Assembly: GCF_053078305.1 (NCBI RefSeq) | Contig: NZ_CP166879.1 | Length of the DNA stretch: 64,000 nt | Reading direction: 5' to 3' (one strand) | Shown: positions 37,715 to 54,582 of the stretch, in pieces | How the letters are laid out: every line of letters begins with the position of its first letter | Numbering within the stretch: position 1 is the first letter of the stretch | The notes under the pieces: model-generated | What the model was told of the DNA's origin: nothing | The model's input: the letters and a program-made list of their open reading frames with translations, nothing else | The model's database searches: none | Position numbers and translations under genes: made by a program

Positions 37715-39233
37715 ATGACCACAAATAACTATCTGGAATATTTTCTGACTCTGCTGGGCTGGGTGGTGAATAACGGTCTGTGGAATGTGTTGATCAGCAC
37801 AGGACTGTTTGCCCTGCCACTGGCATTCAGGATCATCGGGATCTGGCTGAAAGTCAGGGAAGAAGGTGCGGATGAGGGAAACAAAGGGATGCTTTCCCTG
37901 CCGCGTATTGAGCATGTTCTCTATGGTGCTTTTTTTGTGATGATATCCTGCTGTGTTCCTCTGGTACAGGTGACGCTGGATACGCTGTCATTCGATAAAT
38001 CCAGGGCACAGACCTGTGGGGTATGGACACCTGAAGAGCCCGGAGAGACGGGGTACAGTGGGGTGATCAGCAGTATAGGGGATCAGACTGCTGCAGCCCC
38101 GGTATGGTGGGTGGTGGTTCATAAATTGTCGAAAGGTGTCACCCAGGCGGCAGTGGCTTCGATTCCGTGCCGGCCTGATTTGCGCCAGTTGCGTTTTGAG
38201 ATCCAGCGAACGTTTATAGAAAACAGGGCACTTGCTGATGAGCTGCAGGACTTTATGAACGACTGTTATTCACTGGCACTGTATGTGGAAACAGCGTGAT
38301 CAGGGGCAGAGTAAAGATAAAAAAGTGCTTGATGATATCTCCTGGATAGGGAGCGCCACATTCATGCAGGGGGATTACGGGACGCTGCAGTCAAAGATGC
38401 CGCGGGCTGCGTTCCCGTGGAATACAGCACGTGACAGCGGACGACCGGATACGGGGCGGGGAGGCTATCCGACATGCCGGGAGTGGTGGAGTGACAGTAG
38501 TGTGGGGCTGAAAAAACGGGTCATGGAGGAGGTCAGTGACCATTACTGGTTACGTCTGTCAGCTGCAATGAAGATGATTGGCAGTAGTCAGGTGGATTAT
38601 AAGGAGGAGGTGATCAAGCGTCTGGTGAGTCCGGCAAACCTGACGCTCTCTCAGGGGGGAGAGGTGTATCGTGGCTATGGTGGCAATGCAGATATGACGA
38701 CTATGAATGCGGTGGCCCGGATTGCGGGAACGGCGGGCAGTGCGGTAGCAGCACTGGGTGCGTTTCCGGCACTGGATGCAATGCGGCAGGCACTGCCGAT
38801 GGTACAGTCGATAATACTGATGGCGATTTACATCATGATACCGCTGATTCTGGCGTTTGCGGCATATGAACTGTCGACGTTAATCACACTGACGTTTGTG
38901 GTGTTTGCGGTACACTTTCTGACGTTCTGGTGGGAGCTTGCACGGTGGCTTGACAGCTGGATGCTGACGGCGCTGTACAGTTCGGATACACATACCCGGT
39001 TCAATATGATGGGATTCCAGAACACATCGGATGATCTGATAATGAATCTGGTGATGGGGACAATGTTTCTCGTCTTGCCGGCAGTGTGGCTGGGTGCGTT
39101 GTCCTGGGCTGGGGTGAATATGGGCTCTGTGGTTGGTGATACTTTTGGAAAAAGTACAAGTCATACCTTTCAAGCTGCATCAAAAAGTGGTGATCTTGCA
39201 TCTAGTGGAATTTCAAAAGGTATGAATAAATAA
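37715..39233 (+). pseudogene. traG: TraG-like (F-type TraG N-terminal domain) mating-pair protein, split into two frames
   Basis: 194-aa and 316-aa ORFs overlap at 38283-38299 in different frames. The downstream frame is open only from 38259 and ATG 38283 has no RBS. The two sum to about 510 aa, the size I recall for intact homologues. Confidence 0.5.
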
Positions 39234-39234
39234 G

Positions 39235-39267
39235 AAAAAGTCCAGTATAATTTATACTGGACTTTTT
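39235..39267 (+). terminator. bidirectional intrinsic terminator at the end of the transfer cluster
   Basis: AAAAA-GTCCAGTATA-ATT-TATACTGGAC-TTTTT. Confidence 0.75.
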
Positions 39268-39279
39268 GAATAAGTATCA

Positions 39280-39579
39280 TCATATGAAAGGCGTTTTTAT
39301 TTGTGTTGGTGAAATAAATGGAGATTCAATTTCTGATACAAATGGTGATTTATAAGATAGGTCTAAGGGCATGTCGTTATTATTTTTAATAACTGAAGCA
39401 GATTGTTTATTAGCCAAAAATGCACAAGTGACCTTTTTTACAAGGGAGTTGAAGGTCCATGGATTATCCATCGGCTTACAACGCCACATTGCTTTTTCAG
39501 ATTCGTTATTCATATCTATACCCTCGGCGCAGGATAAATAACACAGTGTTATCATACGTCTTGTATGATAAATGTGCAA
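39280..39579 (-). CDS. hypothetical protein (AT-rich)
   Basis: Track ORF only. Confidence 0.25.
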   Translation of the reverse strand: MHIYHTRRMITLCYLSCAEGIDMNNESEKAMWRCKPMDNPWTFNSLVKKVTCAFLANKQSASVIKNNNDMPLDLSYKSPFVSEIESPFISPTQIKTPFI

Positions 39580-39673
39580 TCACATGTCTTCCATTTGATG
39601 AGAGGCTGTGACGCCACATTACCTTGGGACACGGGGATTCTGTTGAAATGATCCATCTGAGAATGTATCTTGT

Positions 39674-39689
39674 TGTTATGTTATAACAT
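39674..39689 (+). promoter_or_regulatory. putative Zur box upstream of ykgM
   Basis: TGTTATGTTATAACAT, 13 nt upstream of the ATG, matches the TGTTAT..ATAACA core of the enterobacterial Zur operator (from memory). Confidence 0.55.
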
Positions 39690-39701
39690 GGGTGAAGACA
39701 G

Positions 39702-39965
39702 ATGAAACCAAATATCCATCCTGAATACCGCACAGTAGTGTTCCATGACACGAGTGTGGATGAGTACTTTAAAATAGGTTCTACCATCAAAACAGAGCGC
39801 GAGATTGAACTGGACGGTGTGACGTATCCGTATGTGACGATTGACGTTTCCTCCAAATCGCATCCGTTCTATACCGGTAAACTTAGAACGGTGGCATCAG
39901 AAGGCAATGTTGCCCGCTTTACTCAGCGTTTTGGTCGTTTCGTTGGGACTCAGAAGGGGGAATGA
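39702..39965 (+). CDS. ykgM: ribosomal protein L31 type B (zinc-independent paralogue)
   Basis: [31 protein letters not shown]...[20 protein letters not shown] is near-identical to E. coli YkgM as I remember it and lacks the CxxC zinc motif. Confidence 0.9.
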
Positions 39966-40105
39966 TGAAAGTGCTTAATTCTCTGCGAACGGCCAAAGAG
40001 CGACCTCCTGACTGTCAGATAGTGAAGCGCAAAGGGCGATTGTATGTAATTTGTAAATCCAATCCTCGTTTTAAGGCTGTTCAGGGACGCAAAAAAAAGC
40101 GTTGA
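39965..40105 (+). CDS. ykgO: ribosomal protein L36 paralogue
   Basis: Not in the track (46 aa). [46 protein letters not shown]. The start overlaps the ykgM stop by 1 nt. Confidence 0.85.
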
Positions 40106-40320
40106 TTCCGAAGCTTGTACATAGACTGTGAGCAGTGCTCAGACATGATTTATGTCGGTACATTAGCATTGATGTGTGTCGGCATTAATTAATTTTTGTG
40201 GATGCGTTCTATCATTCATATCTTCCTGTGCTTTGCTGCTTGATGGGAAATCCTCTTCCAATATCACGGCGATGTTCACTTTTTGCGTAAGTGGACATCG
40301 CTGCGTATTTTTTGTTAGTT

Positions 40321-40584
40321 GGGGTTTGAGGCTCAGTGGAACAATAACCGCCGTTAAGCGGTCATTTTAAATAGCCAAAAATCAACCCAAAAATCAACCA
40401 GCCAATTTACATCGTGAATCTGCGTTCTTGGCTATCTGTTTTGGGGGGGCCAAGTTGGCTTTAGTCATCCTGGCCGTTTGCGGAACAAAAGACGTTGTTG
40501 ATCTCAACAGATTGATTTACCTGTTATTGACCATTCAATTGAACCGCTTAACCGCCTTTTGAGTTCCACTACTCCCCAAACCCC
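40321..40584. mobile_element. Tn3-family-derived miniature inverted-repeat element (TIME), 264 bp
   Basis: Terminal IRs GGGGTTTGAGGCTCAGTGGAAC...GTTAAGCGG and (reverse) GGGGTTTGGGGAGTAGTGGAAC...GTTAAGCGG resemble the Tn3 38-bp IR. 5-bp direct repeat TAGTT at 40316-40320 and 40585-40589. No transposase. Confidence 0.8.
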
Positions 40585-40588
40585 TAGT

Positions 40589-41683
40589 TTAGTTTTTAGT
40601 TTCCAACGGTGGTAATTTTTCAAGTGTCAGTAGTTCCTGCCCCTTTACCCGACGGCATTGGGAAGCTGCATCCTGAAGTTTTTCGCGAACGTTATTATCA
40701 TAGTCGGGATCCAATAGTTGGTATTGAAGACTATCTTTGTATGATTGAATGATATTTAGTGGACAGATAAGGCGTATATCACCGAGTGAATAAAGTTTTA
40801 CTGCCTTAAGTAAATAGTATTTTTCATCTGAAGAGCGAGCACTCTGCCAGGCTGAGTTTCTGAAATATTCAGCAGGATATGAGGTGGTCGGTATTCCATA
40901 AACATGAGGAGTCAAGTCCATGATTCCTGATATTTTAAGGAAAATAGTTAGTATTAGAGCTGGAACCATATGCACAAACGTAAAAATGAAGGCTAATATT
41001 CCAGCCATGATTCCGCCAGTCACAATTACCTGATTTAGCAAGCTGGTGCGGGTTCTTAACCTGAGGAAAACAATACAGGGAATAAGTGAAAAAATAATCA
41101 GAAGAATTGATAATACTATAACACTCAACACCTGCCAGAACTCGTTTATTCCTTCCGGGAATTCCAACGTATGAAGAAATAACTCAAGAGGAATAATATA
41201 TATGCAGGCTGCGTGGGTGAATAGCGTTGACTGTACAATATGCATGGAAAGAAACTTTTTGATCTGCTTCCACTTACCCTCTGTGCTTATCTGTCTATAA
41301 GTAATAGAGCCATTGAGACACAGAGAAAGTATAAAACTGCAAATCCAGATAATGCTTAACTGAAGTAGCACATATTGTTCAATTTCTTTTCCTGCGTTGT
41401 ACATGAGGAAAAAATAACCAAAAAATATCAGTGTTGATAATAGCGAGGTCAGAAGAACGATTTTGATGTTGTTTTCCGTCAGTTCATTCCGGAAATCACT
41501 TTCCCCTGGATAATTGGAAATATAGAATCCTGCCACTAGTGAGGGCATAAATAACGCCATGCAAAATAGGAGTACGCTGATACAAGCAAAGACCATCAGA
41601 TAACTGAACAATGATGAAAAAGAAATACTGTCAAAAAAAAGTCCTGTTTGTCCAATACGCGCAAGATGTGACCATATAAACAA
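40589..41683 (-). CDS. polytopic membrane protein (364 aa), unknown function
   Basis: About 8 hydrophobic segments plus a roughly 90-aa soluble C-terminus; AT-rich. Confidence 0.5.
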   Translation of the reverse strand: MFIWSHLARIGQTGLFFDSISFSSLFSYLMVFACISVLLFCMALFMPSLVAGFYISNYPGESDFRNELTENNIKIVLLTSLLSTLIFFGYFFLMYNAGKEIEQYVLLQLSIIWICSFILSLCLNGSITYRQISTEGKWKQIKKFLSMHIVQSTLFTHAACIYIIPLELFLHTLEFPEGINEFWQVLSVIVLSILLIIFSLIPCIVFLRLRTRTSLLNQVIVTGGIMAGILAFIFTFVHMVPALILTIFLKISGIMDLTPHVYGIPTTSYPAEYFRNSAWQSARSSDEKYYLLKAVKLYSLGDIRLICPLNIIQSYKDSLQYQLLDPDYDNNVREKLQDAASQCRRVKGQELLTLEKLPPLETKN

Positions 41684-41881
41684 TGCTACAATAGAAGTTG
41701 ACGCGATCGGTGTAAGGATTGTTAAAAACCAAGCACATAGTTTTATAAAATGTTTGTTTACTCTGTAATTTTCTATATTTTAGTGTCCATTCAAAGTTTG
41801 ACATATGATCTAGCTAATGACTCCATTTTTGGGCATTGCTTACCAACATACCTCTTATGTGTATTACTGTGAAGGAGAACG

Positions 41882-43099: not shown

Positions 43100-43348
43100 T
43101 CACTCAGGATCTGATGGAGGTTTTTTACGAGAATTAAACTTATCGATCAGATTAAAAACTATCGCTGCTAGTGTTATCGATGTACCTGCTATGCACCCAA
43201 ACACAATAACTCTTATCATTTGGTGGGTCGGGAAAAAAAAGAATCCTTTTGTTAGGTAAATAAATAAAGCTCCTCCCCCCATCAAAAGAAATCCACTGAT
43301 GATACAAAAGAGGCATGCATATATGAACAATACAATGTAAGCAATCAT
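43100..43348 (-). CDS. cdiI: CdiI immunity protein (82 aa, integral membrane)
   Basis: 4-nt overlap with the cdiA stop. Hydrophobic helices IVLFIYACLFCIISGFLLMGGGALFIY and VIVFGCIAGTSITLAAIVF. Confidence 0.7.
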   Translation of the reverse strand: MIAYIVLFIYACLFCIISGFLLMGGGALFIYLTKGFFFFPTHQMIRVIVFGCIAGTSITLAAIVFNLIDKFNSRKKPPSDPE

Positions 43349-46300
43349 TTCCCCTCCTCCTTCTTCGCGCTAGAAGAGAACTGATTATTACTACTTGCTT
43401 CTTTTATATATCCACCAAGAAATTCACTACCAAAAGATCCTGTCGCATCAAATATAAATCCCGGAAACTCTTTCCCAGTAACTGAGTTTACTATTCCGGG
43501 AGCATATACTCCAAATGCTCCACCCAATCCGGCCCCGGCAGCAGCCCCTCCAATAGAGCCTGTATTTGGACCATCGGTAAAGAATGCACCACCCATCGCA
43601 ATTCCGACGTTTTGTCCGACAGTTCTCCCCGGCGCAAGCATACCCGCAATGCCTGAACTGGCACTGCTTTTCCAGTCCCAGTTTTTGTTTTCATTACCTG
43701 GCTGGCTTAAATCAAACCACTGGTAACTTCCATTGGCTATCTCCGCGACGACTCCACCACTGACCATTTTACCGACCGAAGCAGCAGGCCCCAGATACCA
43801 TGCCCCGGCAATCATTACACCATCCTGATATCCATCCACGATCACTTTCGTGATATTGGTGCTGTCCGGCATATCACCTTTCGCTATCTTATCCAGTCCA
43901 GCCTGTGTTTGTTCCGGTGTCAGATTATTGTCCACCGCGTACTTGTTCCATGATGTAGCCGCAGCAGCATTGCTTTCAAAACCATCACCGAAGCTGAGCG
44001 CATTATTCTCAACCGTCGTCTTACCTGACTGTGCTCCGGCTACCGCTGAAGCTCCCGAATCTCCCACCAGACCACCGGCCAGGCCGGCAGCAACCGTTGC
44101 CAGTGTCGAGACCGTCTGCTTCTCTGTCCCGCTCAGTTCACTCACCGGCTTACCGTACATCTGTGTGGCTATCATTCCCACCACCTCGCCGGTGGCTGCG
44201 CCTGCGGCACCAGCCAGAGCATTCTTACCCTGTGCCAGAGACAGGGCTGCATTCACTACTGCATGAGCTGCCACACGTCCCGCACCGTCCGGGGTGGTCT
44301 GTTTGATAATTTCAGCAATATACGGTGCTGCACCACCTGCCAGGGCTGCACTCAGATTACCGCCGGCCAGCCCCTGTACTGCTGCCGTTGCGGCCTGTAT
44401 CGCCTGCTGGTATTTGCCTCCCGTTCCAAAACCTGAGGCCGCCATACCGTTATTGTAGGCCCGCTGCGCCACATCCTGTTCCGTGAACGGTTTTCCTGCT
44501 GCCTCAAGCTCCTCACGGGCCTGATTCAGTGCTGCCGGGTCCCGCTTCGCTTTCTCACCAGCTATCTGGCCTTCCGTTCTGGCAATATCTGCCACCTGGT
44601 TACCAATCTCACCAATGAGCTGCGCCTGCTGCAGTCGCTGCTGCTCTTTTTCCCTGTCAAAGATGGGGGACAGCGTCTGGTTTGCATGTGCTGCGTCACG
44701 GTTCAGGTCTGCCACATCCTGTTTCTGGCTCTGCGTATCCCGGATGGTGATATTCCCGGCAGACACAGCCGACTGAGTGGTGCTTTCTGCATGGCCTTCA
44801 TGATTTGCACCAACCAGCAGATTGTTGGCCATATTTCCCGCGAACTGGCCACCGATGCTGCCGCCAGTGCTGATACCCACGCTCTGGTGTTCAACTTTGT
44901 AATCAGCACGATTTTCGATATCACGGAAGCCCAGTGTACCGGTATCCAGCCGGTTTTTATCTGCCGTTGCCGTGGACGCAATCACCGCACCGTTCAGTTG
45001 CGTATGCTGTCCGGTGGTGACATCAAACCCGCCCCTGCCGGCAAAAATCCCCGTCTGCTCCTGCACACTGTCATAGTTACTGTGCATTTTATCCCGGCTG
45101 AGGCTCACACTCGCCGAACCGCTCATGGACCCGAAAGTGAAGCTGCCTCCGGCACTGGCATTCTGCTGCTTACTGTCATAACGGTCACTGTCCTGCTCAC
45201 TGGTCAGTGTCAGATGACGACCGGCATCCACTTTCACCGTTTCACCGCCGGCCTGCACGCCGGTAAGCGTGGTGTCCCGCCCGCTGATAATGGTCAGGCG
45301 GTTTCCCGCATCCACCGTGGTTTCTGTATGGGTGGTACCGTTGCCTTTTTCACTGCCCTTACCCTGGTTTGCGCTGGCTGAAACACTGATACCCCAGCCT
45401 CCGGCCCCCACACCGATACCGACACCCACACTGCCGCCACTGGATGAGTTCTTTCCTTCCAGCTTTGACGTGTTTTCTGCTGATACCAGATTCACGTCAC
45501 GGTTTGCCTGCAGCAGAACGTTGTTCCCTGCCTTTATCTGACTGCCCTGTATCGTCAGGTCACCATCCACGTCCTTCACGCCGGAGCCGGTGGCCTGAAT
45601 ACTGAGGTTATTACCTGCGGTCAGGGCGCTGTTCTTCGCCACCGTCTGCTCTGACTGCTGTTCTGATTTCGAAGACTGGCTGCCGTAAGAGAGGCTGATA
45701 CCCACGGCATTGTTATTCTCTTTCTGGTTGCCCTGTGCTTCTGCCAGTCGTCCGGCCTGCACGGCCTGAGCCCCCGAGAGCGCGGCCTTCACCCCCTGCA
45801 GGGCTTCAAGCCGGCTGTTTCCGGCAGATTTCGCCGCCTGCACGGTCTCCACCGTCGTGTTCAGGGCGCTGCCCACTGTGCCGGACAGGGCAAGCGTCAG
45901 ACCGGAGGTTTTCTGCTCCACCGAATGCGTCTGCACATGCCGGTCTGTGACGGCGCTAATGCTGACCTCCTTACCACTGAGTGCCATGTCCCTGCCGGCA
46001 ATCAGGTCAGCACTGTTGGCGCTCAGCCGGTTACCTGCCTGAAGGGAAACATCACCGTGAACACTCCCCACCGTGCTGCCTTTCTGTGTGCTGTCTGTTG
46101 CGGTGTCCGTGACTTTCAGACTCTGGCTGCCCACACTGAATCCCACACCTCCGGAGCTCATCAGCCCGGATTTTTTCTCCTGTTTCAGGTGTGTTTCACG
46201 GTTGCTTTCTGTCAGCGTGCCGATACTCAGGTCATTTCCGGCAGCCAGGGAGACACGGTTATCCCCGGCCACACTGCTGCCCGTGACGTTCAGATTATGT

Positions 46301-49300
46301 CCGGCACTGATACTGACCGTATCCCCGTTCAGTTCACTGCCCGTCATGGTCCGGCGGTCAGTGACATCATGCGTGGTTGTGGTGGTTTTCGATAACATCC
46401 CGCTGCTGCCGGTCACTTTATGGTATTCATCCAGCGAGCGGGTATTCTGTGCACCGGTCAGCGTCACGTCATGACCTGCCATCAGGGCCAGGCCTTTCTG
46501 AGCTGACAGCGATGCCGCCTGTGACGTCATATCCCGTCCGGCGGTCAGCGTGACATCACCGTTACCGGCAAGCGTGCTGCCCGTACTCTGTGTGACGCCC
46601 TGCGACAGACGATTATTTTTATCCCAGATAATATTGTCCTGCGCGGAAGTGGTCACTGTGGAAAGCGTCATATCCCTGCCCGCACTGAGTTGCGTCAGGC
46701 TGTCCTTACCCTGATTCACCACCGTTGCAGCCGTCAGATTCATATCCCGTCCGGCCTGCAGCACCAGTCTTCCCTGGTCGTTCTGCACATACACGCCGGC
46801 CACACTGTCGATACTGGTACGTTCAAAATGGTTCTGTCCGGCGTCGCGCTGTGCCGTACGGGTGGTGGTGGTCAGACTGATATCCCGTCCGGCCATCGCC
46901 AGCAGGCTGTCCGTGGCCTGCAGCAGCCCGCCGGTACTGTTAATATCCGTCCGGGCCGTCAGGCTGACATTTGCTCCCTGAATGGAGCCGGCCTGGTTGT
47001 GAATGTTTTCTGCACTGAGCTGCACGGTCTGCTTCCCGGCCAGTTTACCGCTGTTAAACAGGTCACCATCCAGCTTCATCACCATGTCCCTGCCGGCAAT
47101 CAGCGCACCGGCACTGTTCACATCACCGGGTTTTACACGGGCATACACCTGAGGTACCTGAACTGTCTGCGTGCTGCCGTCCGGCAGTGTCACCGTGGTG
47201 TTAACCAGCCAGACAATATCCCCGGTCAGTAACGCCATCTGCTCAGCCGTCAGCGCCACACCCGGTTTCAGGTTGTATTGCTTACCAAATGCAATACCCG
47301 CATCCATTAATGCCTTAAACTGCTCTTCATCACTGCCGTATCTGTCCAGGTACCGTTGCCCGGTCAGAGCGACAACCTGCTCTCGAATCAGACGCTGCTC
47401 GTAAAAACCGTCTCCCAGACGTTTGAGCATGTTATCCCCGTTCTGAGAAAACGCCTTCTGCATGTAATCACTGCCCAGCCACATCTTCTGGTTCGTAAAA
47501 CGCGGGTCCGTTTCAACCAGATATGGCACATTCACTGCCGGATTTGTTTTAAACAGACTGCTGTCCGGCAGACGGGTATCCGGCCCGGCAACATGGATAC
47601 TGCCCTGAGGTGTGCTGACTTCAAACTGCTGCCCCGGCAACAGAATGACCGGTTCACCGGCAGACACCACCGGGCGAAGCGGTATCCGGTCAGTAGCGGC
47701 TACTGCCGCATCCACATTTCCGGCCTGTCCTGTCTGTACATCCGTTCCCTGTGGCTTCAGAGGAGAAAGCGTGACCTGGCTGCCCTGAATCTGTCCGTGG
47801 CTGGTGAGCTCTCCCGGCTTCAGCGTAATGCTCTGAATTACAGTGGGCGGAGTGTACTGAGAGGTTTTCTCCCCCTGCTTATCCTTTCCTTTTTTCCTGA
47901 TACGGTAATAATACGTGGATGTTCCTGAGTCCGTAACATGCCGCTCGCCACTGACACTGACATTTTCCACGCTTCCTGACGGAATGGTCAGCAGGCCGCC
48001 TGCAACAACCTGACTCTTATCATTAAGCAGTTTGTCTGCCACAATCGTCATGCCGGCACCGGACAGAATTTTTCCCGGGTCGGAGTCTTTTACCCGGGTT
48101 TCTTCCACGGTACGGGTGTAATCATACTGCGTGAATTTATCTCTGGCGCCTTCCGGTGTATGCAGTTTTTTCAGTGAGTTACTGGAATCGTTATCCACAT
48201 AAACGCCCGGTTCACCGGCGCTCCAGCGTTTATCTGAGCCGCTGAGCTGATACTCAGTCACCTTTTCCGTGGAAACCACCACGCGCTCCGTGGTGAAATG
48301 GTCATTGACGTTATTGATTTGTCCGGCACTCAGTACCAGATATCCGGCGGCTTCAATAGTGGCACTGTGATTATTCAGTACACCGGCTTTCCCCGTGGCG
48401 GCACCATTCGCATCCAGCATGCCACCAGTATGCATATCACCTGCACTGTAAATCAGGCTGTGCGTCCGGTTATTCAGGGTCTGTACCCCTAAGTCCACAC
48501 GCTCACGCCCGGCCAGCGTCGCCGCCACGCCATTTTCTTCCAGATTATTAAATGTGGCAGCGCTGACACCAACAGCATCGCCGTAGATTCGCCCGGTACC
48601 GGAATTCGTCAGGGTGTTCGCCTGAAGATGCGTATATTTCCCGTCAATCAGCCCACGGTTCAGCAGTGTGTCCGTCACGTTAAGCCAGGTCTGCCCGGCA
48701 CTGATTTCACCTTTCTCTGTGTTTTCAAGGCGGATGCTGTTCAGGTCAAGCCGGCTGCCTGCCAGCAGGCTGCCGGTATTAGAGACATCGCCATTAACGG
48801 AAAGCGTAAGGTTTCCGTTCGCAATAGTCTGACCACTGTTGCTGAACGTTGTGTTACTTTTCAGCGTCATATCGCCCAGCGAAAGCAGTTTCCCGTCACC
48901 ACCGAGCTGACCGGCATCCACAGATACTGACTGCCCGGCCTTAACCACGCCGTCACGGTTCGAAAACGCCAGCTGACGGCCACTGACAGACAATGTCGCG
49001 CCGGAAGAGAGGACGCCGTCATTATTACTGAGCGTCCTGTCTGCCATAACCGTAAGCGCCCTGTCTGCCAGAATACTGCCCTCCTGGTTATCAAGGTCCT
49101 GCGTCGTGATGTGTATTGTCTGCGCTTCCAGCCCCTGACCGGTATTCTGCGTGTGGCGATTGATAAACTGCAGGGCGTTCAGCGTAATGGCGGAACCACT
49201 GCGAATCAGACCAGAGACGTTGTCCACAACGCCCCGTACACTGTTGAGCAACATGTCGCCCACAGACTGTATTTGTCCGTGGCTGTTCTGCAGACCTCCC

Positions 49301-52290
49301 GTATGCAGACGGAGTTCACCTTCACTGACCAGCCGGCCCCCCTCACGGTTATCCAGCGAGGTGGTGCTCAGGTCAGCTGTCGTTTTCGCCCCCACGGTCC
49401 CGCCCCGGTTATCCATTGCTCCGGTACTGACAGTCAGTTCCTGCAGGCTGTTCAGCGTACCGCGTCTGTTATCCAGCGTCTGGCCTGCGGTATTAATGCT
49501 GATACCCCTCCCCTGAATAAGACCGGACTGATTGTTCAGCGCCTGGCTGTTCCAGCCGAGCAGACCGTTTGCCACCATCTGACCGGATGTATTGTTAACC
49601 ACGCCTGCAGTCAGGGACAGAGCATCTCCCGACAAAAGCACACCGGCAGTGCTGTCCAGTGTGCCGGCATTCAGCGTCATCGGACCCTGACTGATAACCC
49701 CGCCCCGGTCACCACTATTACGGTTACTCAGTGTGTCAGCACGGAGATTCAGCGATGCACCGCTCTGTATCAGGCCGCCGGCATCGTTGATGATATCCGT
49801 CGAGGAAAGTGTCAGTGACTGCTGTGCCACCAGTCTGCCGCCCTGATTATCAAACCGTGTGACATCCAGCCTGCTGTTACCGTTGCTGACCACCGTCCCC
49901 TGCTGATTTTCCAGCACACTCAGGTGCGTATTCAGGTCCCCGCCGGCGGCAAGCGCCCCTTCCTGATTACTGACATCACCACCACTCAGCAACATATCCG
50001 TCCCGGCCTTCAGTGCGCCTTTCTGGTTCATCAGCGTACCTGACGATATCTGTAATGACGTCTGACTCCCCAGCACGCCCTGACGGTTATCGAGCGTTCC
50101 GGCGTTCAGGGTCATATCCTTCTGACCCGCCATAAATCCCTGCTGGTTATTCAGCATACCGGCCCGCACTGTCAGGGTACCGGCGCTGCTGATACCACCC
50201 CGTGTTTTCGTGTTCCGGTTACTGAGTACCCCGTCCTGTACATCCAGCGTCATGTCACTGCCGGACTGAATCAGACCATCATCAGAGACCAGTTCGCTGC
50301 CTGACACAGACAGCGTTTTCTGTGAAAGCAGTCTGCCGGACGTATTATCCAGCGCACCATCCAGCGTCACAGACAGCCCGTCAGCCACCACCGTACCCTG
50401 GTGGTTATTCAGATTCCCTGCCGAAATATCCAGCCTGCCGGCGGACTCCATTCGTCCCTCAGTATTGCTGACAGCCTGCTGTGTTTTTATCCTGCCCGTT
50501 CCGGCAGCAGCTGAAATCAGTCCGTTGTCGTTATTCAGCGCCTGTGTATTAATCAGGATGTCACGGCTGGCAAGCAGACGTCCCTGCTGGTTATCCACGG
50601 CGCCGGTTGTCCTCACCTGCAGACTGCCTGACTGCGCCGCCTGCACTTTCCCCCTGCGATTATCAAGGCTCAGTGCATCCAGACGCACCGCGCCATTTGC
50701 CGCAAACAGCCCTTCCCGGTTATCCACGCTTCCCGGCAGACTCAGCGAAAAATCCCCTGTTCCCGTCTGAGTCAGACTGCCTTTACGATTTGACAGGCTT
50801 TGTGCCGATATCTGCAGTGTGTCGGCATTTATCGTGCCACCATTATTGCTGAAGTGCCCGACAGTCCGGGCGGAAAGCGTACCGGCACTCAGTTGCGCAT
50901 TCTGTGTGGACAGATTTCCACTGGTTGCATCCAGCTCAGTATGTTGTCCCTGTATCCGGCTGTTGCTTAAATCCAGCCCCTGCCCCTTCAGTTGCATGTC
51001 CCCACCGGACAGAACCTGTCCGTGTGCCGCCAGTTCGCCGGTGGTACTGACAGTCAGGTTGCCCGCTGCCGCCAGACGTCCGTCATCTTTCACCCCGGCG
51101 GCCAGCAGACTCCGCTCACCGCCGGTCAGACGCGCTGTCTGAATCCGGGTGTTGCGACGTGATGCCACAGAGCCTGTATGGGTGAAGACACCATCACTCT
51201 GTATCTGCGTATCCTGCCCCGCATAAACAGAACCACTGTTATGCAGCTCCCGGGTTGTCGCCAGATGCACATCCGTTTTCGCACTGATACTGCCACTGTT
51301 TTCAATACGTCCGTCAGCCGTCAGGGTAACCGCCCCTGCCTGTGCACCAATATGACCGGCGTTACGAACACCCACCCCCGTTTCCGTACCGACAAGGCGA
51401 ATTTTTCCGGCATACATTCCGCCAAGACTGGCCACATCCAGTGCCATCTGAGGCTGTGAAGAGACATCACCGGTCTTTTTCTCAATCTGCCCGTGCGCGA
51501 TATCCACATTGTTACGTCCTGTGGTCACTTTCAGATCCTGCGCCCAGATACCCGCATTAATCTTCACAGACCGGGCAATGATATCGGTATAATCCGTGCG
51601 CGAGGCATCCATCCCTTTGCCCGTAACCTGAATCTCACCACGTTCAACACTGAATCCGGTCAGACTGCCGTTTTTCATCTGCGGCTGCCCCGTGGTCAGC
51701 GTGGCCCGGTTCGCATTAATAAAACCGCACCCGTCGCAACTGATGCCGGCCGGGTTCGCAATCACCACCTGCGCCTTTTTACCGGCAACCTCAACAAAAC
51801 CGTTCAACTGGCTGGGATTGCGACTGTTCACTTCATTAAGAATGATTCTGGCCTCTCCCTTAGCCAGCCACGGGTTCCCGGCCACCATGCCACCCAGTTG
51901 AGTCTGCACATTGTTATGGGCATTATTCAGAATGACGCCCTGGTTACCGACGTCGAACTGGCTGTATGCGTTATGTGAAACCCCGCCGGCAGAAGGCGTC
52001 TGAATATTCACCTGCGGAATGCCGCTGGCCGTCTGCGTAATCGTGGGCTGCTGATACCCTGGTGCGCCATGGTCTGCGACAATGCCTGCAGCACTGACAG
52101 AATGCACCATCCCCGAAGCCAGCCACAAAGAGAATGCAAGCGGCGTGACACGGCAGATACGTTGCCTGTGTGGATATCCTGTGCGGGAGGACAGTGATGT
52201 ACCGGCGCGACCGGAACGGGCAATATCTGCCACCACCATCAGCATTCCCCGGGCTTTGTTAAAAATAATGCGGTAACAATTTCTGTTCAT
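43345..52290 (-). CDS. cdiA: CdiA contact-dependent inhibition exoprotein (2981 aa)
   Basis: ESPR signal MNRNCYRIIFNKARGMLMVVADIA; TPS domain (NAYSQFDVGNQGVILNN, IANPAGISCDGCGFINA); long FHA-type repeats; VENN at 44002-44013 followed by a 218-aa CT. Confidence 0.95.
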   Translation of the reverse strand: MNRNCYRIIFNKARGMLMVVADIARSGRAGTSLSSRTGYPHRQRICRVTPLAFSLWLASGMVHSVSAAGIVADHGAPGYQQPTITQTASGIPQVNIQTPSAGGVSHNAYSQFDVGNQGVILNNAHNNVQTQLGGMVAGNPWLAKGEARIILNEVNSRNPSQLNGFVEVAGKKAQVVIANPAGISCDGCGFINANRATLTTGQPQMKNGSLTGFSVERGEIQVTGKGMDASRTDYTDIIARSVKINAGIWAQDLKVTTGRNNVDIAHGQIEKKTGDVSSQPQMALDVASLGGMYAGKIRLVGTETGVGVRNAGHIGAQAGAVTLTADGRIENSGSISAKTDVHLATTRELHNSGSVYAGQDTQIQSDGVFTHTGSVASRRNTRIQTARLTGGERSLLAAGVKDDGRLAAAGNLTVSTTGELAAHGQVLSGGDMQLKGQGLDLSNSRIQGQHTELDATSGNLSTQNAQLSAGTLSARTVGHFSNNGGTINADTLQISAQSLSNRKGSLTQTGTGDFSLSLPGSVDNREGLFAANGAVRLDALSLDNRRGKVQAAQSGSLQVRTTGAVDNQQGRLLASRDILINTQALNNDNGLISAAAGTGRIKTQQAVSNTEGRMESAGRLDISAGNLNNHQGTVVADGLSVTLDGALDNTSGRLLSQKTLSVSGSELVSDDGLIQSGSDMTLDVQDGVLSNRNTKTRGGISSAGTLTVRAGMLNNQQGFMAGQKDMTLNAGTLDNRQGVLGSQTSLQISSGTLMNQKGALKAGTDMLLSGGDVSNQEGALAAGGDLNTHLSVLENQQGTVVSNGNSRLDVTRFDNQGGRLVAQQSLTLSSTDIINDAGGLIQSGASLNLRADTLSNRNSGDRGGVISQGPMTLNAGTLDSTAGVLLSGDALSLTAGVVNNTSGQMVANGLLGWNSQALNNQSGLIQGRGISINTAGQTLDNRRGTLNSLQELTVSTGAMDNRGGTVGAKTTADLSTTSLDNREGGRLVSEGELRLHTGGLQNSHGQIQSVGDMLLNSVRGVVDNVSGLIRSGSAITLNALQFINRHTQNTGQGLEAQTIHITTQDLDNQEGSILADRALTVMADRTLSNNDGVLSSGATLSVSGRQLAFSNRDGVVKAGQSVSVDAGQLGGDGKLLSLGDMTLKSNTTFSNSGQTIANGNLTLSVNGDVSNTGSLLAGSRLDLNSIRLENTEKGEISAGQTWLNVTDTLLNRGLIDGKYTHLQANTLTNSGTGRIYGDAVGVSAATFNNLEENGVAATLAGRERVDLGVQTLNNRTHSLIYSAGDMHTGGMLDANGAATGKAGVLNNHSATIEAAGYLVLSAGQINNVNDHFTTERVVVSTEKVTEYQLSGSDKRWSAGEPGVYVDNDSSNSLKKLHTPEGARDKFTQYDYTRTVEETRVKDSDPGKILSGAGMTIVADKLLNDKSQVVAGGLLTIPSGSVENVSVSGERHVTDSGTSTYYYRIRKKGKDKQGEKTSQYTPPTVIQSITLKPGELTSHGQIQGSQVTLSPLKPQGTDVQTGQAGNVDAAVAATDRIPLRPVVSAGEPVILLPGQQFEVSTPQGSIHVAGPDTRLPDSSLFKTNPAVNVPYLVETDPRFTNQKMWLGSDYMQKAFSQNGDNMLKRLGDGFYEQRLIREQVVALTGQRYLDRYGSDEEQFKALMDAGIAFGKQYNLKPGVALTAEQMALLTGDIVWLVNTTVTLPDGSTQTVQVPQVYARVKPGDVNSAGALIAGRDMVMKLDGDLFNSGKLAGKQTVQLSAENIHNQAGSIQGANVSLTARTDINSTGGLLQATDSLLAMAGRDISLTTTTRTAQRDAGQNHFERTSIDSVAGVYVQNDQGRLVLQAGRDMNLTAATVVNQGKDSLTQLSAGRDMTLSTVTTSAQDNIIWDKNNRLSQGVTQSTGSTLAGNGDVTLTAGRDMTSQAASLSAQKGLALMAGHDVTLTGAQNTRSLDEYHKVTGSSGMLSKTTTTTHDVTDRRTMTGSELNGDTVSISAGHNLNVTGSSVAGDNRVSLAAGNDLSIGTLTESNRETHLKQEKKSGLMSSGGVGFSVGSQSLKVTDTATDSTQKGSTVGSVHGDVSLQAGNRLSANSADLIAGRDMALSGKEVSISAVTDRHVQTHSVEQKTSGLTLALSGTVGSALNTTVETVQAAKSAGNSRLEALQGVKAALSGAQAVQAGRLAEAQGNQKENNNAVGISLSYGSQSSKSEQQSEQTVAKNSALTAGNNLSIQATGSGVKDVDGDLTIQGSQIKAGNNVLLQANRDVNLVSAENTSKLEGKNSSSGGSVGVGIGVGAGGWGISVSASANQGKGSEKGNGTTHTETTVDAGNRLTIISGRDTTLTGVQAGGETVKVDAGRHLTLTSEQDSDRYDSKQQNASAGGSFTFGSMSGSASVSLSRDKMHSNYDSVQEQTGIFAGRGGFDVTTGQHTQLNGAVIASTATADKNRLDTGTLGFRDIENRADYKVEHQSVGISTGGSIGGQFAGNMANNLLVGANHEGHAESTTQSAVSAGNITIRDTQSQKQDVADLNRDAAHANQTLSPIFDREKEQQRLQQAQLIGEIGNQVADIARTEGQIAGEKAKRDPAALNQAREELEAAGKPFTEQDVAQRAYNNGMAASGFGTGGKYQQAIQAATAAVQGLAGGNLSAALAGGAAPYIAEIIKQTTPDGAGRVAAHAVVNAALSLAQGKNALAGAAGAATGEVVGMIATQMYGKPVSELSGTEKQTVSTLATVAAGLAGGLVGDSGASAVAGAQSGKTTVENNALSFGDGFESNAAAATSWNKYAVDNNLTPEQTQAGLDKIAKGDMPDSTNITKVIVDGYQDGVMIAGAWYLGPAASVGKMVSGGVVAEIANGSYQWFDLSQPGNENKNWDWKSSASSGIAGMLAPGRTVGQNVGIAMGGAFFTDGPNTGSIGGAAAGAGLGGAFGVYAPGIVNSVTGKEFPGFIFDATGSFGSEFLGGYIKEASSNNQFSSSAKKEEGK

Positions 52291-52305
52291 TCTGATAAAC
52301 CTGAC

Positions 52306-52833
52306 TTATCTCTCCGGCACATCCACAGCAAGCGGGTGCTGCACACGCCACTGGCGCGCCTCTTCACGACTGACCTGTGCACCCCGGAAATTCATCACCC
52401 GTAACCCGGTCTGCTGCCCACGGTGGTACAGCGAACGCCAGCACAGACGGGGAAAAATATCCTGCCGGACAAGACGACTCATATCCGGAGTGTGTCCAAA
52501 AGGGGCAACCCAGTCACAGACCCACATCCGGTCGCCGCTGTTCCAGTCCGACTGAGGCATGAGAATTGCCGGCTGCGTAAGATAACGCGCCTCTGCCTCC
52601 GGGCTGAGCCAGGCCTGGCTCATGAAGAAAACCGGTCGCCCCTGCTCTGTTGCCACCACATACTGTCGGTGCTTAATCACCGGCAGCTGCAGGTCCGGCA
52701 GGGTATGCAGTGGCGCATCACGATGCAGGGGGGAGTGCATCCACAACCAGACGGCCGCCCCCAGGACTTCCGCCTCATTGACCGGCTCACCGGAATACAG
52801 GGGACTCAGAACGTCATATTTCCCGTTACGCAT
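52306..52833 (-). CDS. cdiC: CdiC, HlyC/TAAT-family toxin-activating lysine acyltransferase
   Basis: LGAAVWLWMHSPLHR, WNSGDRMWVCDWVAPFG parallel the HlyC motifs LGHVSWLWASSPLHR, WTSGDRKWFIDWIAPFG. Located between cdiB and cdiA. Confidence 0.85.
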   Translation of the reverse strand: MRNGKYDVLSPLYSGEPVNEAEVLGAAVWLWMHSPLHRDAPLHTLPDLQLPVIKHRQYVVATEQGRPVFFMSQAWLSPEAEARYLTQPAILMPQSDWNSGDRMWVCDWVAPFGHTPDMSRLVRQDIFPRLCWRSLYHRGQQTGLRVMNFRGAQVSREEARQWRVQHPLAVDVPER

Positions 52834-52842
52834 GAAACTTTC

Positions 52843-54582
52843 TCAGAAATCCCGGAACAGATTAAAACCGGCTGTCACATCACTCGTCATAAAACCCGCC
52901 GGCTTTGAAAACGGACGACCGATGAAAACGTCATAATCCGTACTGAACAGTTGCCCCCTCAGCCCCACAACACCACCGGCCAGATGACGTCCCACCAGAT
53001 ATTCACTGCCGGCTCCCCCCACCTCGCCGTAATCCATTCCCAGATATAACGCCTGCTCCGGCAGTGGCGTACGCCAGGCCAGGTCGTTGCGGATATACCA
53101 GCCGTTACTGGCATTCAGCGTTCGCTCCCCGTCAAAACCACGAACCGTCCAGCGGTTACCGATGGCAAACTGTTCCTGTGGGGTCAGCGGGGTATTGCTC
53201 AGCTGGCGCTGATACCGGAAGGAATAACTGAAGGGCTGCTCTGCCAGTGTAAAGGGCAGATTAAAGGATGCATTCATCTGCAGGATCTTACTGAGCGCCG
53301 TTGCCTCACCGAAGATTTCCTCCGGTGCCGGCTGTGCACCAAACCAGCGGGTTCCCCGTTGCCAGCTGACACCAGCATCCAGTGTGGCCTGAGAAATATA
53401 ATGACGGTGCTGCAGCCCAAGTCGCCAGGCCGCTGTCTGCCGGCGCTGCACCTGGATTTCCGTATCATTAATGTAGTTACGCGACCTGCGGGCCTGAACA
53501 TCGTAAGTCAGCACCGTTTTCTGCGTCCCGTTACGATGCAGTACCCGGCTCAGCTGCATGCCCAGATTCTGACTCTCGCCACTGTACTGGTAATCCTCAA
53601 CCGCACCAGCTACCGTCTGATGGTAATCGTAATCACTGGCGGTGACGGAAAACTGCCAGTAACCGAAAGGCACAGAGTAATGGGCCGTGTAGTTTTTACT
53701 GCCCTTACCCCCGTAATGTGGAAAATTATGGGTGGCAGAAACATACAGCAGGTCACTCAGGGAAAAAGGATTATCCAGAGAAAATGTTATACCACCGAGA
53801 TAACGCCCTGTGCTGCGGGTACCTGAATCATCAAGCGAAAACCCCAGTCGCCAGTATTTATCCTGTTTACGGGTAATAAGAATATCACTTTCCCCTGGCT
53901 GCTCACCGGGCACAATTTCCATATCAGCCTGCACACCCGGCAGTCGTTGCATATTCTCCAGCCCCTGCTCAATGTCCCGTAAATCCAGCAGAGAACCTTC
54001 GTGTGCCGGGAATGAGGAATACAACTGAATATAGTCATCACTGTCCGGTGTCAGACGCACATGTCGCACAACACCGGGAATAACAACCAGCCGGAGGATA
54101 CCGCTTTTTAAATCCTGCGAAGGTGCCAGAACACGGGTGGTGACATAACCATGATCGACAAGACGGTTCTGCAATGTACTCATCAGCAGATTAATTCCTT
54201 TCGCCCCCAGGCAATGCCCGACCGCCCCGTTGGCGATTTTTTGTAAAGGCAGCCAGTGTGGTAACGCATCAGCCCCCTTCAGTTCCGTCTGTTTAATCTG
54301 AAAACAGGGCGTTTCAACAGGAAAATTAATCTTATGGGCAAAAGAGCCAGGTGCAGAAAGGCGAACATCAGGGGCTGAAGGCGTCAGTTGTTGCTCAAGG
54401 GCTTCCTGACGCTGCTGCTGAATGATAAATGTATCCTCTCCACTACGCCGGATATCCGCGGCCTGAAGAGATAAAGGCGATAATAAAACAGACATCAGTG
54501 TCAGTGATAAAATGAACGGACAGCGCCGGAATAAGCTTTGTTCCTCAGCCCTCTCGTTCCTGCAACATAATTTTCCAGCCAA
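52843..54582 (-). CDS. cdiB: CdiB TpsB-family (ShlB/FhaC-type) outer-membrane transporter
   Basis: Signal peptide ...[15 protein letters not shown]-type N-terminus, beta-barrel ending in ...GFNLFRDF. Alternative start at M30 (54495). Confidence 0.9.

Follow-up and report, generated by a model that had tools for sequence, protein, structure and literature searches.

A second ykgM-ykgO operon with a predicted Zur operator, carried as accessory cargo by an SPI-7/PAPI-1/ICEclc-family ICE of Escherichia coli

Ribosomal-protein genes are a textbook case of rare transfer. The window, i.e., the whole 64,000-nucleotide stretch of DNA analysed here, raises the question of how two of them, ykgM and ykgO, came to lie downstream of the conjugation genes of a mobile element, and whether they would still work there under the control of the host. 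The sequence leads us to propose, with a probability of roughly 80%, that the pair is a self-contained and functional second copy of the Zur-repressed ykgM-ykgO operon (ykgMO), and that an ICE of the SPI-7/PAPI-1/ICEclc family carries it as accessory cargo, at the left margin of the variable region of the element. The features on which the following discussion draws are collected in Table 1.

Table 1. Features of the ykgMO locus and its flanks (positions in the window, except for the last line).
Feature	Position	Strand	Description
traG_N	37715-39233	+	Last gene of the ICE T4SS (MPF-G) module; Pfam TraG_N, 2e-43
Bidirectional terminator hairpin	39235-39267	.	Perfect 16-bp inverted repeat, 100% complementary, flanked by an A-run and a T-run
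77-aa ORF between traG_N and ykgM	39280-39513	-	Called/annotated in all related ICEs
ykgMO sigma-70 promoter	39643-39671	+	TTGAAA, 17 nt, TATCTT; sequence-predicted
Zur operator TGTTATGTTATAACATGGGT	39674-39693	.	Motif match and cross-genus conservation; motif from PMC4219657
ykgM	39702-39965	+	87 aa; type B (zinc-free, no cysteine) ribosomal protein L31
ykgO	39965-40105	+	46 aa; type B ribosomal protein L36; H14P allele
Likely ykgMO intrinsic terminator	40267-40312	+	Hairpin with a 15-bp stem, then a U-run
TIME with target duplication	40316-40589	.	264-bp Tn3-type miniature element, itself at 40321-40584
395-aa ORF	40589-41776	-	Conserved flank gene, directly after the TIME
cdiA-like gene and its neighbours	43345-54582	-	cdiA-like gene itself 2981 codons; accompanied by genes for a toxin-activating acyltransferase and TpsB; part of the variable region that holds ykgMO
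ter/ure-island ykgM	NZ_CP033605.1 1341048-1341311		E. coli O157:H7 TR01 (L099 4046-4309, L104 9106-9369)

Both genes are intact and encode the type B forms of L31 and L36. In NCBIfam, YkgM scores 122.7 bits with the type B L31 model NF002462 (cut-off 86) and stays below the cut-off of 70 with the type A models NF000612 and NF001809 (58.8 and 53.3 bits respectively), YkgO reaches 87 bits with the type B L36 model NF002021 (cut-off 70), and a Pfam search agrees with both assignments. The translation of ykgM contains no cysteine, and the CxxC cysteines of the zinc ribbon are thus lost. The original prediction, made from the letters of the window, regarded the two proteins as near-identical to YkgM and YkgO of E. 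coli, and the comparison with E. coli K-12 bears this out (83/87 residues, or 95%, and 45/46, or 98%, respectively). Residues 1-31 of YkgM are unchanged from K-12; its C-terminus reads GTQKGE in the window vs. STKKGA in K-12. The H14P substitution of YkgO falls within the three-residue insertion that sets type B apart from type A L36, and was found on 663 contigs; every other allele examined has His14, including the sister ICE allele of the O22:H8 strain 154, in which this residue is as in K-12. The stop codon of ykgM and the start codon of ykgO overlap as ATGA, through which ykgO is predicted to be translationally coupled to ykgM. A variant of the ICE YkgM with a five-residue tandem duplication (TYPYV TYPYV), 92 aa in length, occurs on 23 contigs in the ykgM-only form of the ICE (protein P0001, locus L100 4001-4279; P0011 is similar).

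The predicted promoter has -35 and -10 hexamers in common with the ykgM promoters of K-12 and E. marmotae, and a 14-nt stretch of the promoter region, TGTTGAAATGATCC, aligns with K-12 without a single difference. The Zur operator abuts the -10 hexamer on its downstream side and spans the expected transcription start. Within it, TGTTATGTTATAACAT occupies 39674-39689, leaving 12 nt before the ATG at 39702, which corresponds to the palindrome originally placed 13 nt before the ATG when the distance is measured between its final base and the A with which ykgM starts. Scored against the structure-based E. coli Zur motif TGWNAYRWTATAWYRTNWCA (PMC4219657), the operator at 39674-39693 matches at 17/20 positions, vs. 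19/20 for the K-12 operator. Its 16-bp core is perfect and stands at the same place relative to the promoter as in K-12; the three mismatches are all confined to the promoter-distal four bases (GGGT for NWCA), and one of the eight purine/pyrimidine skeleton contacts is missing.

Allowing up to three mismatches, the degenerate motif TGWNAYRWTATAWYRTNWCA has four matches in the window vs. 1.3 expected and is weak evidence by itself, and we therefore relied on the exact core and on its conservation across genera. The exact 16-mer occurs once in the 64-kb window, vs. 0.03 occurrences expected at no more than two mismatches. A 15-nt core of the operator is found once per locus in 67 of the 103 loci fetched, from many genera (Kluyvera, Salmonella, Enterobacter, Raoultella, Kosakonia, Buttiauxella, Trabulsiella, Brenneria, Pectobacterium, and others), and with one exception these 67 copies stand immediately before ykgM. 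Such conservation across Enterobacterales is best read as a phylogenetic footprint of the Zur operator and argues for a genuine operator, in support of the earlier proposal that a Zur box precedes the pair. All three ICE alleles retain an intact promoter and operator and share the operator deviation; with the distal flank deviating and one contact lost, repression at the ICE operator may fall short of that seen at the native promoter. The Shine-Dalgarno (ribosome-binding) region of the ICE ykgM also differs from that of K-12. Terminators are predicted on both sides of the operon: the hairpin at 40267-40312 is likely the intrinsic terminator of ykgMO, and the one behind traG_N (39235-39267) would insulate ykgMO from the T4SS operon.

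A mechanism can be outlined for the ICE copy on the model of its native homologue. In E. coli, native ykgM is repressed ~560-fold by Zur and has the tightest Zur operator of the organism, and operator quality tracks repression strength (PMC4219657). In zinc-replete cells, zinc-loaded Zur of the host would sit on 39674-39693 and block RNA polymerase, as this site directly adjoins the -10 hexamer and takes in the start of transcription. Upon zinc starvation, Zur would come off the DNA and both coupled genes would be expressed, and the zinc-free L31B and L36B would substitute for the zinc-binding L31 and L36 in ribosomes. The native L31B (also called L31p) represses translation of rpmE via its N-terminus (PMC9825181); the ICE-encoded L31B probably does so too, the required N-terminus being the same as in K-12. 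The ICE copy would thereby provide extra dosage or a backup, with the regulator of the host in control.

The surrounding genes place ykgMO in an SPI-7/PAPI-1/ICEclc-family ICE of E. coli, where the operon occupies the left margin of the variable cargo. To the left of the operon are backbone genes for ParB, an STY4528-family protein, topoisomerase III (topB), TraD, a conjugative ATPase, the TIGR037xx and PFL_47xx families, and TraG_N; to its right, the backbone resumes with an Integrase_1-domain gene (the Pfam Integrase_1 match lies within the window) and ArdC. For the backbone modules we used the RefSeq annotation of a 98.5% identical element in O22:H8 154, which spans a tRNA-Phe gene, a tyrosine integrase, TraI, and UvrD at one end and ParB, DnaB-PI, and ParA at the other. 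In this complete relative the ICE is ~85 kb long with ykgMO well inside it; the ends of the ICE in our assembly lie outside the window. The tRNA-Phe gene of O22:H8 154 (4924650-4924725) has a partial 50-nt copy (46/50 identical) ~90 nt past parA, consistent with integration into a tRNA gene between flanking direct repeats, as is typical of the SPI-7 family. Taken together, the annotation of O22:H8 154 and the matches in the window place replication/partition, MPF-G T4SS, relaxase, and integrase modules around the locus.

That the pair has the T4SS terminator on one side and a TIME on the other, within an ICE, had likewise been proposed from the sequence, and it holds with backbone genes on both sides. 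The window copy of traG_N is broken by a frameshift into two ORFs (37715-38299 and 38283-39233) and is intact, at 506 aa, in sister assemblies; the frameshift may be a sequencing error or, if real, may mark a transfer-defective copy of the ICE. Neither the 77-aa ORF that follows traG_N nor the 395-aa ORF beyond the TIME has a match in Pfam or NCBIfam. The TIME itself has the expected properties of such an element, as it is short and non-coding, has imperfect terminal inverted repeats beginning with GGGG (arms at 40321-40381 and 40524-40584), and is flanked by a 5-bp target-site duplication, TAGTT, at 40316-40320 and 40585-40589. We take its terminal repeats to resemble the Tn3 repeat. More than 100 large conjugative plasmids of E. 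coli and Klebsiella contain the left 67 nt of the TIME at 100% identity. From ykgMO in the 3' direction, the TIME is followed by the 395-aa ORF, a DUF2569 gene, and the cdiA-like region, and then by the Integrase_1-domain gene and ArdC. The GC content is low at 39-44 kb (0.36-0.41). Only some of the sister ICEs have the cdi locus.

The DNA of the ICE operon is only 82-84% identical to the E. coli chromosomal allele. Nei-Gojobori counts between the window and K-12 give 42.5 differences at 60.7 synonymous sites (pS 0.70) and 4.5 at 200.3 nonsynonymous sites (pN 0.022) for ykgM, and 22.0/32.5 (pS 0.68) and 1.0/105.5 (pN 0.009) respectively for ykgO. For the two genes combined the counts are 64.5/93.2 (pS 0.69, an estimate from only ~93 synonymous sites) and 5.5/305.8 (pN 0.018), with dN/dS at ~0.01. 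Across the ICE alleles, pS to K-12 is 0.69-0.71 and pN 0.011-0.018, and silent sites are saturated; the allele of O22:H8 154 equals K-12 at YkgM residues 1-81 and throughout YkgO, though ~70% of its silent sites differ. By comparison, the native allele of E. marmotae stands at pS 0.34 and pN 0.011 from K-12, the ICE allele at pS 0.59-0.60 from E. marmotae, and E. coli at pS 0.73-0.81 and pN 0.08-0.12 from Kluyvera/Salmonella. Homology with K-12 begins ~3 nt upstream of the -35 hexamer and ends ~8 nt past the ykgO stop codon, with unrelated flanks, and the alignment thus limits what is shared with the native locus to a promoter-operator-operon cassette of ~470 bp.

We interpret these distances as follows. 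By its proteins and promoter the ICE allele is of the Escherichia type, branching outside E. coli and E. marmotae; its split predates the radiation of these two species, with strong purifying selection since, and the protein clock of the Escherichia-type clade has been very slow throughout. Selection for silent divergence, or convergence, was considered as well and dropped, because with the E. marmotae calibration (pS 0.34, pN 0.011) a deep split and purifying selection suffice. The conservation of the proteins across saturated alleles points to a tight, lineage-specific constraint on L31B and L36B, possibly through their fit to the ribosome and the rpmE feedback loop.

The search for a donor yielded none, either among the matches listed for species representatives or in a set of 5.8 billion proteins. 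Among the listed matches to species representatives, only that of E. coli exceeded 80% protein identity, the next best YkgM being that of Kluyvera (76-80%), and the 5.8-billion-protein search has a gap between E. coli-type proteins (>90%) and those of other genera (78% or less). All names attached to the ICE alleles are those of E. coli; the alleles are on at least 1000, 919, and 663 contigs respectively. A tblastn search of plasmids found the ICE ykgM allele on none of them; the plasmid matches to ykgM were F-prime-like or misassigned chromosomal records, or plasmids and chromids of other genera at no more than 78% identity.

Within E. coli the arrangement is uncommon, and the traG_N-ykgM junction is present in only 12 of 5426 complete genomes. 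Among ~18 complete genomes with closely related ICEs, ykgMO is complete in five, seven have ykgM only, and six have a promoter stub or nothing. In the seven ykgM-only ICEs (the STEC2018-553 group), an IS remnant replaces ykgO. In three ICEs the promoter is kept but the homology breaks off halfway through the Zur box, where unrelated DNA takes over (e.g., NCCP 13963; L097 6150-6200), and three further genomes share just the first 98 nt of the query. The junction in NCCP 13963 looks like a deletion/replacement scar, which would make ykgMO ancestral there. The loss of ykgO or of the whole operon in relatives shows that the cargo is dispensable, and the pattern of loss among related ICEs argues for an operon that is ancestral in this ICE lineage and has been eroded repeatedly at the edge of the variable region.

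Whether the host chromosome has a ykgMO of its own, a check suggested along with the original prediction, can be answered from complete genomes. In a sensitive search, 5070 of the 5426 complete E. coli genomes have a match to ykgMO, with native copies 81-83% identical to the ICE copy; in K-12 and O157:H7 the native operon lies between ykgR and ecpR. The five complete genomes with the full ICE operon have two matching places each. One is the ICE copy, and the other is taken to be the native locus because 5070/5426 genomes have a match there. In these five genomes the ICE ykgMO is thus a duplicate beside a chromosomal-type copy, and any benefit must lie in dosage or timing, since the hosts already hold a second copy. 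The remaining 356 of the 5426 genomes lack a ykgMO match even in the sensitive search; some E. coli lineages therefore appear to be without the native operon, and in such lineages the ICE copy would be non-redundant.

Other readings of the locus have to be weighed against that of a functional second operon carried by the ICE. That ykgMO is no ICE cargo at all, because the T4SS and cdi regions were misjoined or because the native locus happens to lie beside an island, has next to no chance of being correct. The exact YkgM protein occurs in 1328 blocks of the assembly collection, the gene order (traG_N, 77-aa ORF, ykgM, ykgO, 395-aa ORF, DUF2569 gene) recurs in all ten independent assemblies shown, and contig JPQG01000001.1 of GCA_000736735.1 is identical to the window across all 20,264 nt compared. 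As the junction recurs in these ten assemblies and in complete genomes, the assembly artefact that had been named as a danger to the original prediction does not explain it; the native locus lies elsewhere, and att repeats bound the ICE and enclose the operon. A recent capture of the chromosomal ykgMO of the host by the ICE is very improbable too. It would account for the near-identity of the proteins, the common promoter architecture, and the E. coli-only names of the ICE alleles, but not for the silent-site distance, which at 0.70 in ykgM is about twice that between E. coli and E. marmotae, nor for the unrelated DNA outside the cassette or the failure of megablast, across 5426 genomes, to connect the native locus to its ICE counterpart. 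The earlier suggestion that the element had captured chromosomal DNA thus fails as far as a recent event is concerned, given the 82-84% DNA identity and a divergence deeper than that of E. coli from E. marmotae.

The two readings that accept an intact operon in the ICE and differ over its value deserve more attention, and we regard both as unlikely. The operon might work without benefit to host or ICE in E. coli, as a neutral passenger that is being lost; its rarity, its partial or complete loss among the ~18 related ICEs, and the second copy retained in the complete hosts checked would fit this. Long neutrality is, however, difficult to reconcile with a dN/dS of ~0.01 across a divergence that saturates silent sites, with the absence of any amino-acid change at YkgM residues 1-81 between the O22:H8 154 allele and K-12, or with the integrity of promoter and operator in all three ICE alleles. 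Still more doubtful, in our judgement, is an altered set-point, in which the degenerate distal half of the operator would lead to derepression at milder zinc limitation, or to leaky expression, and thus to an earlier ribosome switch than from the native operon. The lower operator score (17/20 vs. 19/20), the confinement of the mismatches to where the second Zur dimer makes its outer contacts, the presence of the deviation in all three ICE alleles, and the dependence of repression strength on operator quality in E. coli (PMC4219657) would all point that way; the perfect 16-bp core points the other way, and the argument is one from sequence only. We thus continue to favour a Zur-repressed functional duplicate residing in the ICE.

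Following an intermediate-looking protein (P0026), we found a further ykgM lineage on the EHEC ter/ure island, between ureG and hok/gef, with ureDABCEFG, hok/gef, IS66 copies, and terW as neighbours. We presume this island to be OI-43/48- or SpLE1-like. Its ykgM begins with GTG, has homologous promoter hexamers with unrelated sequence where the Zur box stood, and lacks ykgO; it may encode a Zur-independent L31B. Relative to both native and ICE alleles it has saturated silent sites (pS 0.67-0.71) and a pN of 0.017-0.025, and it is present in 589 of the 5426 complete E. coli genomes, including O157:H7, O145, O111, and O26. RefSeq has already annotated this gene, and we found no discussion of it in the literature. 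A "ykgM_2" is also listed without comment in a genomic island with dnaB, ssb, topB, and xerC (PMC12054123). The description of the pair as unusual cargo, part of the original prediction, therefore needs qualification: the operon itself is ordinary and a mobile location is uncommon, as had been proposed, but an island-borne ykgM is not unique to this ICE. The ter/ure-island gene resembles the ICE copy as a second, Escherichia-type L31B gene on an acquired island, with homologous promoter hexamers and saturated silent sites, and differs from it in lacking the Zur box and ykgO, in its start codon, in the type of island, and in being far commoner.

At least three DNA lineages (chromosomal, SPI-7-type ICE, and ter/ure island) are thus mutually saturated at silent sites and encode nearly the same protein. 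One could conceive of Escherichia-type L31B/L36B as mobile cargo that has long circulated matched to the ribosome of its hosts, with the ICE operator variant giving an earlier or faster switch under host zinc limitation (e.g., by calprotectin in the inflamed gut) and a measurable colonisation advantage in the STEC and bovine E. coli that are carriers; we consider this doubtful as a whole, and mention it for what it would imply. If the ICE copy alters the speed or onset of ribosome remodelling when zinc is withheld, it would help to determine the fitness of Shiga-toxin-producing and bovine E. coli, and would spread by conjugation together with a contact-dependent inhibition system. Otherwise, the ICE ykgMO is a duplicate of a well-understood operon. 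What is new is its stable residence in an ICE, its age, and the several saturated lineages of the Escherichia type that mobile islands carry. In the ICE, two ribosomal paralogues move together with their regulatory region on a conjugative element, and for their control they would depend on the metal sensor of the host.

Among known systems, the closest is the K-12 ykgM-ykgO operon (L31B/L36B, or L31p/L36p), with which the ICE copy shares its proteins at 95% and 98% identity, the ATGA coupling, the promoter hexamers, and the position of the 16-bp operator core, and from which it differs in its DNA (82-84%), the distal operator flank, the ribosome-binding region, the C-terminus of YkgM, and its location in an ICE instead of between ykgR and ecpR. 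The island VSP-II of Vibrio cholerae is similar in that acquired cargo has come under the Zur regulon of the host via a Zur box; unlike the present case, this cargo consists of chemotaxis/congregation genes and a peptidase and not of ribosomal proteins, and VSP-II is not a conjugative element of this family (PMC8248653). With the SPI-7/PAPI-1/ICEclc/ICEEc2-type (MPF-G) elements, the ICE has in common parA, dnaB-PI, parB, STY4528- and STY4534-family genes, topB, ssb, pilL, traD, TIGR037xx genes, traG_N, TraI, and a tyrosine integrase at a tRNA-Phe gene; it differs from them in its cargo, i.e., ykgMO, the TIME, DUF2569, and a cdiBCAI-type locus. In the literature we found no paper describing ykgMO in ICEs of this type, and the ICEEc2 papers do not mention it. 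Just past the partial tRNA-Phe repeat of the ICE in O22:H8 154 are a second tyrosine integrase and a further island (L015 22046-23308), the cargo of which includes tia, a phosphoethanolamine transferase gene, restriction genes, and a second cdiA; O22:H8 154 thus carries a tandem island array at one tRNA-Phe site.
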